This document shows, piece by piece, positions 32,408-49,616 of a DNA stretch of 64,000 nt. Both the position numbers and the translations under genes were made by a program. The notes beneath the pieces are model-generated. The model was given only the letters and a program-made list of their open reading frames with translations, did no database searches and was not told the DNA's origin. This stretch comes from an uncultured Fibrobacteraceae bacterium (lineage in GTDB: Bacteria > Krumholzibacteriota > Krumholzibacteriia > LZORAL124-64-63), in NCBI GenBank assembly GCA_964524645.1, contig CAZGEC010000023.1:618-64617 (forward strand), written 5' to 3'. Numbering within the stretch: position 1 is the first letter of the stretch; every line of letters starts with the position of its first letter.

Positions 32408-32467
32408 TTGCCCCACCGCGCCTCATTATTTATTATAAAAAAGCTCAATTATTGCGTGATGTGGCCG
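32408..32467 (+). promoter_or_regulatory. Promoter (TTGCCC-17-TATTAT) with an overlapping AT-rich operator shared with the ric promoter
   Basis: TATAAAAAAGCTCAATTAT (32434..32452) vs TATAAAAAGGTCCAATTAT (48734..48752), 16/19 identical. Confidence 0.6.
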
Positions 32468-32584
32468 ATACTACCCATGACGCGGCAAATTCTGACCCCC
32501 CCGGCCGTTTTGACCGCGGATGCACACAGCCGGCTCCGGGCCTCGCCCGGACCGCGCGACCGGCCCGAGAAGGAGCGTTCCCCC

Positions 32585-33010
32585 ATGCCCGGCATTCAGT
32601 GGACAGACGAGTACAGCGTGGGCGAGCCCTTGATGGACAGCCAGCATCAGAAGTGGATCGGGTACGTCGACGAGCTGGAACGAGCGATCCAGGACCAGCG
32701 CAACCGTCAGGAGCAGGAGGAGATCCTGGACAACCTGGTGATCTACATGCGCTACCACTTCGCCTCCGAGGAGCGGATGATGCGGCGCCTGGGTTTTGAG
32801 GAGCTGGAGGATCACAGCCAGGTCCATGCCCGCATGGCGCGCCAGGTGCGCGAGATGCAGGCCGAAATCCTGGCGGGAACCCGCGAGCTGTCCGACGAGC
32901 TGCTCGAGACCCTGAAGTCCTGGCTCGTGGAGCACATCATGCGCGACGACCAGCAGTATGCGGCCCTGATCGCCCACTACGCCGAGCGGGAAAAGTTGTT
33001 GACCTGCTGA
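32585..33010 (+). CDS. Bacteriohemerythrin
   Basis: W...YSVG...DSQH, HFASEE, H...H, WLVEHIMRDD. Confidence 0.9.
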   Translation: MPGIQWTDEYSVGEPLMDSQHQKWIGYVDELERAIQDQRNRQEQEEILDNLVIYMRYHFASEERMMRRLGFEELEDHSQVHARMARQVREMQAEILAGTRELSDELLETLKSWLVEHIMRDDQQYAALIAHYAEREKLLTC

Positions 33011-37868: not shown

Positions 37869-39380
37869 ATGCCGTCAGCCGCCCCCGGGGGCCACCAGCG
37901 CCTGCTCCTGACGTGGCTGCTGGCCGGGACCGTGGCTGCGCTCCTGATTCTGGCGCTGCTGGGCGGCTGCACGGTGCTGGAGCGCCGGGCGGTCGCCTCC
38001 CGAACCCCCGCCGATCCCGCCACCCCCTGGCATCCCGCCGCCGGTGCCCTGCCGCCGGCCGAGACGCCGGCTGCGCCGGCGACGATCCCGCCGGAGCTGC
38101 TCGCCAGGGCCAAGGAGCTGACGCTCGAGGACATCGTGGACCTGGCCCTGCGCAACAATCCGGAGACGCGGGAGACCTGGGCCGCCGCGCTCGCCGCCGC
38201 GGCGGGCCTCGGCAGCCAGCAGGGCGCGTACTTTCCGCAGATCGACGCCGCGGCCAACTACTCCCGGAGCGAGAACTCCTTTTCCGAGCAGTTCACGGTC
38301 AAGCAGAAGACCTACACCCCTTCACTGACGCTCAACTACATCTTGTTCGACTTCGGCAAGCGCAGCGGGGACGTCGAGGAGGCCCGCCAGGCGCTCTACC
38401 AGGCCAACTGGTCGCACAACGCGATGATCCAGACGGTGATCCTGCAGGTGGAGACCACCTACTACCAGTACCTGCAGGCCAAGGCGCTGCGCGACGCGGA
38501 CGCGGAGGCCGTGAAGGAAGCCGAGGCCAACCTCGAGGCCGCGAAGGTGCGGCGGCAGGCCGGTCTGGCGACCGTCGCCGACGAGCTGCAGGCCCGCAGC
38601 AATCTCGCCCAGCAGCAGCTCGCGCTACAGACGGTCGAGGGGCAGATCCAGACGACCCGGGGATCGCTCGCCACGGCGATGGGCCTTTCTCCCACGATCG
38701 ACTACGACGTCGGCCTCCTGCCCAGCAACCTGCCGACGGGCGAGGTGTCCGCGGTCGTGGACGATCTGATCCGGAAGGCCCAGATCTACAGACCGGACCT
38801 GGCGGCCTCGCGCGCGGCCGTACTCGCGGCCCGGGCGCATGTCAAGTCGGTCAAGGCCGAGGGCTTTCCGCAGGTGTCGGTCCAGGGCAGCGTCTCGCGG
38901 CGGTACTACGACAATCCCAACAAGTACAGCGACAACTACCTGGCCGGGATCTTCCTCAGCTGGCCCCTGTTCACCGGCTTCGCTCATCCCTACGACGTGC
39001 TTCAGGCCGAGGCCCAGGTTGCTCTCGCGCAGCAGCAATACGAGATGCTGCGGAGCTCGGTCGAGCTGGATGTCTGGACCAGCTACTACGACCTGAAGAC
39101 GGCCGCCGAACGCCTGACGACGGCCCGGGAGTTCCTGGACTACGCCAGCGAATCCCACACCGTGACCCTGGAAAGCTACCAGAGCGGCGTGAACTCGATC
39201 CTCGATCTGCTGGCGGCACAGACGACCCTCGAGGAGGCCCGTTCCCAGGAAGTGCAGGCGCGCACGGACTGGTTCCTGGCCCTGGCCCAGCTGGCCCATG
39301 CGACGGGGCGACTCGGCAGCGCCGAACCGCAGCCGACAACGACGCCGCCGGCGGTGCCGGCGAAGGATGGTGGACGATGA
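37869..39380 (+). CDS. TolC-family outer membrane efflux protein
   Basis: Lipobox LGGC; LALRNNP, LFDFG, Y..G....DLL.AQ repeats. Confidence 0.9.
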   Translation: MPSAAPGGHQRLLLTWLLAGTVAALLILALLGGCTVLERRAVASRTPADPATPWHPAAGALPPAETPAAPATIPPELLARAKELTLEDIVDLALRNNPETRETWAAALAAAAGLGSQQGAYFPQIDAAANYSRSENSFSEQFTVKQKTYTPSLTLNYILFDFGKRSGDVEEARQALYQANWSHNAMIQTVILQVETTYYQYLQAKALRDADAEAVKEAEANLEAAKVRRQAGLATVADELQARSNLAQQQLALQTVEGQIQTTRGSLATAMGLSPTIDYDVGLLPSNLPTGEVSAVVDDLIRKAQIYRPDLAASRAAVLAARAHVKSVKAEGFPQVSVQGSVSRRYYDNPNKYSDNYLAGIFLSWPLFTGFAHPYDVLQAEAQVALAQQQYEMLRSSVELDVWTSYYDLKTAAERLTTAREFLDYASESHTVTLESYQSGVNSILDLLAAQTTLEEARSQEVQARTDWFLALAQLAHATGRLGSAEPQPTTTPPAVPAKDGGR

Positions 39381-48513: not shown

Positions 48514-48583
48514 GGACTTTACCCAGGTAAAGTCCGCGCCTTCACCCGGGTGAAGGGCCGGCCCCTTGTTCATCCGGGTGAAC
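48514..48583. repeat. Cluster of three related palindromes: TTTACCCAGGTAAA (48518..48531), TTCACCCGGGTGAA (48541..48554), TTCATCCGGGTGAA (48569..48582)
   Basis: Read directly; the first extends to 22 bp (GGACTTTACC-CA-GGTAAAGTCC) and the second to an 18 bp perfect palindrome. Confidence 0.85.
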
Positions 48584-48703
48584 CGCTGTGCTGTGTATAA
48601 CTCATTGTCAAGGAATGAATTAACCAATTGGACTACTTGCCGGTGCCGGAAGCTCCGCGCGCCTGGCCGCTATCAGCCGCTACCCCCGACCAAAATCTGT
48701 ACC

Positions 48704-48766
48704 TTGACATCCAATTCATCCGCTATTATATAGTATAAAAAGGTCCAATTATCTCTATTGTGGCCG
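48704..48766 (+). promoter_or_regulatory. ric promoter (TTGACA at 48704, TATATA/TATAGT -10) with an operator shared with the hemerythrin promoter
   Basis: TTGACA-17-TATATA; 48725..48766 aligns with 32425..32467. Confidence 0.65.
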
Positions 48767-48800: not shown

Positions 48801-49616
48801 ATGGCAGCACAGGAAATGGATCGCTCCCTGGGTGAGCTGGCGACGGAATATCCCATGCTGGCGGCCCTCTTCGACGAGCTGGGTCTGGACTACTGCTGCG
48901 GGGGCCAGCAGGCGCTCGCGGAGGCGGGTGCCGAGCGCGGACTGGACCTGTCGTTGCTGGCCCAGCGCGTTCGGGACGGGATCAGGGCCAGCGATCGCGC
49001 GGCGGGCGGTGGCGGCGGCGTCCCGGAACCTCGCCTGCAGGAGATGAATCTCGCGCAGCTCGTGGATCACATCGAGAGCACGCACCATGTCTATCTGCGA
49101 GACGAGCTGCCCCGCATGGCCCAGCTCCTGAAAAAGGTGCAGACGGTTCACGGCGAGCGCCATCCGGAGCTGAAGCAGGTCGCCTCCGTGTTCACGCAGC
49201 TGGCCGCCGAGCTGATGGAGCACATGCATAAGGAGGAACGCATCCTCTTTCCGGCCATCCGCCGCTTCGCGGGAGCCCGAGCGCCGGGGTCCGAGGCTGC
49301 AGGAGCCGGGGCTGCGGGATCCATGGCGGCCGGGCCCGGGACGGTAGGGCCCAGGACGGCGCGGCCTGGACCCCTGGGACTGGCCATGCCGATCCGGGTG
49401 ATGGAGAACGAGCACGAAGGCGCGGGCCGGGCGCTCGAAAGTCTGCGCCGCCTGACCGGTGGCTATGCCACGCCCCCGGACGGTTGCGCCAGCTGGCGAG
49501 GGCTCATGGATGCCATGGTGCGGCTCGAGCAGGATCTGCACCGTCACATCCACGCCGAGAACAACGTGCTCTTTCCGCGCACCCTGGCGCTGGAGAGCGG
49601 GGACGCCGGAACGTAG
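48801..49616 (+). CDS. ric: Iron-sulfur cluster repair di-iron protein Ric/ScdA/YtfE
   Basis: LDYCCGG, HIESTHH, HM.KEE.ILFP, MENEHE, DLHRHIHAENNVLFP. Confidence 0.93.
   Translation: MAAQEMDRSLGELATEYPMLAALFDELGLDYCCGGQQALAEAGAERGLDLSLLAQRVRDGIRASDRAAGGGGGVPEPRLQEMNLAQLVDHIESTHHVYLRDELPRMAQLLKKVQTVHGERHPELKQVASVFTQLAAELMEHMHKEERILFPAIRRFAGARAPGSEAAGAGAAGSMAAGPGTVGPRTARPGPLGLAMPIRVMENEHEGAGRALESLRRLTGGYATPPDGCASWRGLMDAMVRLEQDLHRHIHAENNVLFPRTLALESGDAGT

Follow-up and report, generated by a model that had tools for sequence, protein, structure and literature searches.

A shared AT-rich promoter element upstream of ric and a bacteriohemerythrin gene as a candidate operator of an uncharacterised Rrf2-family repressor

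Two genes for di-iron, hemerythrin-fold proteins, ric and a bacteriohemerythrin gene, lie 16 kb apart on the 64,000-nucleotide stretch of DNA analyzed here (the window) and carry closely similar AT-rich sequences in their promoters. Which protein, if any, reads this element, and does it place both genes in one regulon? We propose, with a probability of roughly 0.6, that the element is a promoter-proximal (site A type) operator of an NO-stress regulon under an uncharacterised Rrf2-family repressor encoded outside the window, on contig C16, and that the regulon includes the hemerythrin gene through a weak site. The proposal is based on sequence similarity, conservation, co-localisation and detection by a matrix; from these we infer that the protein binds, which way it regulates, what signal it answers and where transcription starts.

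An AT-rich element shared by two promoters

The features of the two promoters are as follows (window coordinates).

32408..32436, + strand: predicted hemerythrin promoter, TTGCCC-17-TATTAT (9/12 consensus positions; 0 such sites in 50 shuffles)
32432..32455, + strand: hemerythrin element, ATTATAAAAAAGCTCAATTATTGC, in the same 24-bp frame as ric site A; candidate non-canonical operator
32460..32467, + strand: TGTGGCCG tail of the hemerythrin copy, common to ric and only partly kept in orthologues
32585..33010, + strand: bacteriohemerythrin, 141 aa (Pfam PF01814; NCBIfam NF033749, 125 bits)
48690..48713, - strand: ric site B, reading TGGATGTCAAGGTACAGATTTTGG on the reverse strand; candidate operator overlapping the -35 hexamer
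48704..48709, + strand: predicted ric -35, TTGACA, inside site B and invariant in the alignment of 72-75% orthologues
48727..48734, + strand: predicted ric -10, either TATATA with a 17-bp spacer or TATAGT with 19 bp
48732..48755, + strand: ric site A, AGTATAAAAAGGTCCAATTATCTC, the element noticed first; promoter-proximal candidate operator over -10/+1
48759..48766, + strand: TGTGGCCG tail of the ric copy, by sequence and alignment with the hemerythrin copy; only partly kept in orthologues
48801..49616, + strand: ric, iron-sulfur repair di-iron protein with ScdA_N and hemerythrin domains (Pfam; TIGR03652, 216.6 bits vs cut-off 204.7)

The initial annotation had placed both sequences correctly. 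The cores TATAAAAAAGCTCAATTAT (32434-32452, hemerythrin) and TATAAAAAGGTCCAATTAT (48734-48752, ric) are identical at 16/19 positions and both contain an ATAA-N10-TTAT dyad, and a global alignment of 32425-32467 with 48725-48766 has 33 identities in 43 columns with one gap. The two promoters are most alike within the operator frame, a stretch that takes in the right arm, AATTAT, on the downstream side of the predicted start. The element also overlaps the -10/+1 region of both promoters, as first described, insofar as the predicted promoters, which are consensus predictions only, place it there; the promoter scan made no -10 call for ric, where TATATA lacks the T at position 6. The 42-bp shared stretch thus reads as a composite of three parts: an operator of 24 bp, the -10 hexamer and a TGTGGCCG tail, the last unexplained. 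It accommodates overlapping dyads of both 16 and 24 bp, and the register and extent of protein contacts are ambiguous from sequence.

Intergenic promoter islands are compositionally biased and calculations with independent bases overstate significance, and two AT-rich islands in a GC-rich genome might therefore resemble each other by chance, with no shared function. We consider this highly improbable, in line with the initial annotation. The pattern TATAAAAARGNYCAATTAT with up to three mismatches has two matches in the window, both of them the cores, and 0 in 100 shuffles; genome-wide (4.5 Mb, 69% GC), no further 19-mer lies within three mismatches of either core, and TATAAAAA occurs only 7 times. 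The local alignment score of the two promoters is 23, against a null mean of 10.5 (sd 1.8, maximum 20) from 3000 random 160-bp genome pieces. Both copies are kept in orthologues, and the ric copy was found independently by a matrix built from foreign sites (see below). In a scan of metagenome contigs for ATAAAAARGYYCAATTAT, almost all of the matches listed (80 of 119) were in DNA below 55% GC, and three GC-richer ones were unrelated.

The Rrf2-family regulator and the ric promoter

In six loci from five genomes of the same family, ric is divergent from an Rrf2-family gene, with TTGACGTCCAGGTTTA-type repeats between the two. The orthologue of this regulator in the genome studied here (G000) lies outside the window, and its region and that of a quinol NO reductase (qNOR) gene contain the following features, with bit scores from the foreign-site matrix.

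G000:C16:38095-38514: Rrf2-family regulator gene, assigned as the orthologue (53% identity) of the same-family Rrf2 beside ric
C16:38536-38559 and 38589-38613: the regulator's own two predicted sites, in the intergenic region that separates the Rrf2 gene from a divergent ferredoxin-like gene
C16:38536: regulator site B, 19.8 bits
C12:12799: qNOR site 1, 29.2 bits
C12:12853: qNOR site 2, 19.3 bits

The regulator's divergent region reads, in order, TGGACCTTGACATCCAAATTAA-N30-TGGACAAAAAGGTCCAAATTATCCA, with ACCTTGACATCCAAATTAA ... AAAAAGGTCCAAATTATCC in the same two-site layout as the ric promoter. This arrangement is kept in 71-88% orthologues and in distant phyla; site A of an 88% relative is TGGATATAAGGGTCTAATTAATCCA, in which the A-run is not kept. 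Clear dyads of about 23-25 bp are found at the regulator's site A (TGGACAAAAAGGTCCAAATTATCCA) and at qNOR (TGGATCTATGGGTCCAGATGACCA). The divergent gene (G000:C16:38646-39425) encodes a ferredoxin-like protein (4Fe-4S dicluster and AF_0155 domain) that is the lineage's conserved divergent partner of the regulator and probably belongs to the regulon. In some cases a membrane polyferredoxin (Fer4_5) comes before it.

Relatives of the regulator number 536 in species-representative genomes and are distributed over the Planctomycetota (Phycisphaerae, Pirellulales), Acidobacteriota, Latescibacterota, Krumholzibacteriia, Eiseniibacteriota and others. Neighbours and sites were counted at 80 loci drawn from these 536. 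The genes beside the regulator encode qNOR (24/80 loci), Ric (21/80), NnrS+DUF1858 (16/80), hemerythrin-domain proteins (9/80) and Tll0287-like haem proteins (6/80); judged by these predicted functions, the surroundings are an NO-response neighbourhood. Some members are named 'Rrf2 family nitric oxide-sensitive transcriptional repressor' in the JGI automatic annotation, a pipeline name that we give no evidential weight.

Upstream of the regulator gene, the order is site A (a 24-bp dyad, e.g., TGGATATCTGAACCCAGATATCCA), TTGAC, a 17-bp spacer, TAnnnT and site B (TGGATGTCAAGGTCCAGATATCCA); across the 80 related loci, site B provides, on the opposite strand, the TTGACA -35 of the divergent target gene. 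The family operator, which occurs as a conserved pair, has the consensus TGGATATC-N8-GATATCCA, a dyad of about 24 bp in which the outer TGGA/TCCA blocks are the best-conserved positions. The ATAA-N10-TTAT dyad, originally noted in the 19-bp core, is present and forms only the inner part of this operator. Matches to the consensus at 11/16 or more positions, at most 300 bp upstream of the Rrf2 gene, were found in 64/80 loci vs 23/385 control pieces, and two sites 52-59 bp apart in 15/80 loci.

A symmetric matrix was constructed from the sites of other phyla only and then scored on G000. The top scores of this matrix include regulator site B and the two qNOR sites, which are 54 bp apart and lie upstream of a 742-aa qNOR; ric-A (14.6 bits) ranks 6 of 4.5 million genome positions and ric-B (12.8 bits) ranks 15 genome-wide. 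The remaining matches of 11-15 bits in G000 are inside coding DNA or before unrelated genes; scanned as a possible generic promoter element, the motif does not hit many unrelated promoters. An AT-rich near-palindrome, CCTATAAATGAGTTTATTTATCCT (G000:C11:13655-13678), scores 11.2 bits with the family matrix. It lies either inside a minus-strand ORF whose product resembles a HAD-type hydrolase at its beginning, or a little upstream of where that ORF probably starts. Short palindromes around CTCAATTAA at G000:C65:2485 and C66:1326, TTGCATTgctcaattAATGCAA and ATAGCGGactcaattaatCCGCTAT, probably belong to other factors.

The ric promoter has the order TGTACCTTGACATCCAATTCAT-N19-AGTATAAAAAGGTCCAATTATCTC, with site A starting 42 bp after the start of site B. 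The spacing of site starts at qNOR and the regulator gene is 53-54 bp, and differs from that at ric by about one helical turn. Site A of ric keeps the inner ATAA-N10-TTAT and the central GGTCCA, and has AGTA/TCTC as its outer blocks. In syntenic orthologues at 72-75% identity (metagenome contigs), hardly a base changes in the two sites or in the ATATAG of the -10, whereas upstream DNA and flanks diverge; TGGATCTTGACATCCA within site B is kept, and the family matrix re-detects ric-A at 13.0 and 17.6 bits. Since the ric promoter shares its two-site layout with the regulator's own region, the element noticed first is the promoter-proximal of two sites, the other of which, over the -35, had been missed; it is most likely one of two predicted sites for a widespread, uncharacterised Rrf2-family repressor. 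A search upstream of the second Ric paralogue (G000:C28:48766-49455, 37-41% identity) gave no recognisable operator, and the motif was not found upstream of the closest genome-level Ric (G015, 54% identity).

Farther upstream, 120-190 bp from the ric -35 (window 48514-48583), there is an array of TTCACCCGGGTGAA-type palindromes, kept in the 72-75% orthologues, with at least five copies in L258 vs three in the window. Possible interpretations are a site for a second regulator and a repeat/terminator array.

How does the C16 protein compare with known members of its family? It passes only the Rrf2 superfamily model (107 bits vs cut-off 73.3) and is far under the cut-offs for NsrR, IscR, RirA and CymR. 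The predicted structure (pLDDT 89) has the Rrf2 fold, with TM scores of 0.77 to RsrR and 0.79 to an NsrR-DNA complex. E7, C90, H97, C102 and H105 are invariant in 81 regulator orthologues and C138 is present in 94%; the Cys/His pattern C90, H97, C102, H105, C138, made up of candidate ligands, matches none of the characterised members. Our literature search for this Rrf2 clade or its operator found only papers on canonical NsrR and RsrR.

The NsrR regulon comprises genes for NO detoxification and repair, including ric/ytfE/dnrN, norB and nnrS (Rodionov et al. 2005, PMC1274295). The C16 regulator resembles NsrR in its Rrf2 fold, in having predicted sites in its own promoter, in its candidate dyad operators of about 23-25 bp over -35/-10/+1 and in its predicted NO-gene targets, qNOR, Ric and NnrS, all three by co-localisation and site prediction only. 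It differs in scoring 47.9 bits vs a cut-off of 182 on the NsrR equivalog model (NF008240), and NsrR is only its eighth-best solved relative by sequence (E 1e-5). In the NsrR of S. coelicolor, the cluster ligands are three closely spaced Cys; the C16 regulator has C90-X6-H97-X4-C102-X2-H105 and C138 instead of this three-Cys motif. The family operator, TGGATATC-N8-GATATCCA, also contrasts with the NsrR consensus gATGyAT-N5-ATrCATc (PMC1274295), and hmp is not among the gene clusters common to at least 5 of the 80 regulator loci. We therefore rejected canonical NsrR, given the score under the model cut-off, the other Cys/His set and the different operator. Rrf2 control, originally listed among the usual possibilities, is borne out to the extent that an Rrf2 gene lies beside ric in relatives and the matrix finds the ric sites; NsrR itself, listed with it, fails on both model and operator.

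The closest solved structure is RsrR, a [2Fe-2S] redox-sensing protein of Streptomyces venezuelae (PDB 6HSD; E 4e-10, 32% identity). RsrR is autoregulated, with two full dyad sites in a divergent regulator-target region, and has many weaker sites with one recognisable half (PMC5015018). The C16 regulator likewise has two candidate dyad sites in a divergent intergenic region and predicted autoregulation. Two RsrR residues are also retained, the position-7/8 Glu and a Cys that aligns with C110. However, the RsrR ligand His12 is replaced by Arg11, the first Cys is displaced in the alignment, and the neighbours of the C16 regulator's family are qNOR, Ric and NnrS. IscR belongs to the same protein family and is among the solved structural relatives, but the C16 regulator scores 42.9 bits vs a cut-off of 207 on the IscR model, isc/suf genes are not adjacent, and the type-1/type-2 motif differs. 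Outside the Rrf2 family, NO boxes of the Crp/Fnr type (DNR, NnrR, HcpR; TTGAT-N4-ATCAA or TTGAC-N4-GTCAA) were considered and rejected: neither element contains the palindrome, and the TTGAC of ric site B has no GTCAA at N4.

A more far-reaching interpretation, which we offer tentatively and think doubtful as a whole, is that the Rrf2 clade constitutes an NO sensor of a separate kind, with members in 536 or more species-representative genomes, with a cofactor on C90, H97, C102, H105, C138 and E7 of the partner subunit, unlike NsrR, IscR or RsrR, and with two grades of operator that would give a stepped response to rising NO. The first grade would be the full TGGA...TCCA dyad, at qNOR and the regulator gene, and the second an AT-rich, shape-read site without the outer GG/CC bases, at ric-A and the hemerythrin gene.

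The hemerythrin copy

The hemerythrin copy has the same position relative to the predicted -10 as in ric. It keeps only the inner dyad and the AT-rich inner parts of the operator, with ATTA/CTCA/TTGC where the family has TGGA/TCCA/TCCA, and it scores -5.1 bits with the family matrix (rank about 3184); the orthologous loci, scanned with the same matrix, gave no match above 5 bits. In 87-92% orthologues, the gene order metF-hemerythrin-DUF2891 is syntenic, and the four distinct sequences retain CATTATTTATTATAAAAAAGCTCAATTATTGC with 0-5 changes. The AT-rich element is absent from a 71% orthologue. Conservation is not operator-specific: the kept block, ~90 bp long, covers the -10 and reaches 60 nt into the leader. 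A manual count for the 87% relative gives only 13/19 matching positions between the hemerythrin and ric cores, assuming that both loci are from one organism, as suggested by a matching hemerythrin/ric pair on one 24-kb contig. Hemerythrin homologues in family-level relatives are at most 36% identical, are not syntenic and have no upstream site, a distance too great for footprinting.

Within the hemerythrin leader, a GCCGATACTACCCATGACGCGGCAAATTCTGA block (window 32464-32495) is kept in all orthologues, including the 71% one that is without the AT-rich element. An RNA element in the leader, including this block, was rejected (fold z-score 0.35, no supporting covariation), and an Rfam search of 30000-52000 returned nothing relevant.

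The low matrix score, in the window and in the orthologues, would be expected if the Rrf2 protein controlled only ric, qNOR and its own promoter. The hemerythrin copy would then be either a promoter module that shares its ancestry with the ric one or an AT-rich promoter (-10, A-rich start, leader) that arose by convergence; its contact bases would have been lost or never present, and it would not be under NO control. As shared descent predicts, the likeness to ric is not confined to the 24-bp operator and also covers ATTAT in the -10 and the TGTGGCCG tail, the entire 90-bp promoter-leader block is kept rather than the operator alone, and the 71% orthologue does without the element. Yet identity peaks in the operator frame, including the AATTAT arm past the start, where a promoter needs little; the placement against the -10 is that of ric; hemerythrin-domain genes are beside the regulator in 9/80 loci; and RsrR binds many sites with one recognisable half (PMC5015018). 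On balance, we judge an unregulated hemerythrin copy to be rather unlikely.

Could a second regulator, e.g., of the Fur/PerR family, read the AT-rich part (TATAAAAA...CAATTAT) and co-control hemerythrin and ric independently of the Rrf2 protein? The left half, TTATAAA, is similar to a Per-box half-site. A third, related element, TTGACA-17-TAATTATAAAAATCCAATATTC, is found in the promoter region (G000:C35:30640-30742) of a Fur-family gene (G000:C35:30742-31263), and the hemerythrin site contains a 7-1-7-like palindrome, GCTCAAT-T-ATTGCGT, of which the 87% orthologue changes the centre base alone. The copy at the Fur gene is, however, 2 bp shorter between the arms, and the promoters of Fur orthologues in 15 relatives have ACGATTATCGT or GAAAAC-N-GTTTTC boxes and nothing like the element. 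Per and Fur boxes fail to match the right halves, and the ric copy lacks a 7-1-7 palindrome. The same core is also found in the promoter of the Rrf2 gene itself, at the place canonical for site A. We thus regard independent control by such a regulator as improbable; the TTGACA-17-TAATTATAAAAATCCAATATTC at the C35 gene could be a further non-canonical site or a coincidence. The PerR/Fur box itself (7-1-7, TTATAAT-N-ATTATAA) was rejected, with about 8-9/14 positions matching in a comparison by eye with the Per box and a right half that fails; the loose Per-box likeness seen at the outset does not explain the element, and the boxes of the Fur-orthologue promoters are different ones.

We return to control by the C16 regulator. 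Most probably the hemerythrin copy serves the same Rrf2 protein as a site that is weak or non-canonical, and co-regulation of hemerythrin and ric is plausible, because the copy resembles ric-A and the regulator's site A, its placement against the -10 is identical, and hemerythrin-domain genes are found beside the regulator elsewhere. The half-recognisable sites of RsrR make binding at such a copy possible. The initial annotation had a shared operator before both genes, within a repressor-controlled O2/NO regulon with an undescribed operator. The sequence likeness stands, and for ric so does the regulon, by virtue of the Rrf2 regulator, its autoregulatory sites, the qNOR target and the foreign-site matrix. 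The hemerythrin copy, without the TGGA/TCCA determinants and undetected by the family matrix (-5 bits), leaves co-regulation the weaker half of that proposal. Conservation in orthologous upstream regions is similarly divided, with the motif kept at ric (72-75%) and hemerythrin (87-92%) and missing from the 71% hemerythrin orthologue.

A predicted NO-stress regulon

By analogy with NsrR and RsrR, a metal-loaded dimer of the C16 regulator would bind dyad sites of about 24 bp. At ric, one dimer would be placed over the -35 (site B, 48690-48713) and another over -10/+1 (site A, 48732-48755); with site starts 42 bp apart, about four helical turns, the pair would shut out RNA polymerase. NO would attack the Cys/His-bound cofactor and the protein would leave the DNA, derepressing ric, qNOR, the ferredoxin-like gene and the regulator itself. 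The single degenerate copy at the hemerythrin gene would bring an O2/NO-binding hemerythrin into the regulon.

Characterised NO-responsive Rrf2 repressors are mainly from Proteobacteria, Firmicutes and Actinobacteria, and our analysis points to a separate, widespread clade in poorly studied phyla. What sets this clade apart is a separate operator consensus, the conserved layout of two autoregulatory sites and a Cys/His set that is unusual; the genes associated with it encode quinol NO reductase, Ric and NnrS. The motif could be used for annotating NO regulons in Planctomycetota, Acidobacteriota and metagenome genomes of the FCB group, and the C16 Rrf2 is a concrete protein for the biochemistry of Fe-S and NO sensing. 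Within the window, the predicted sites would explain the ric promoter and narrow the membership of bacteriohemerythrin in the NO response to one question of binding.
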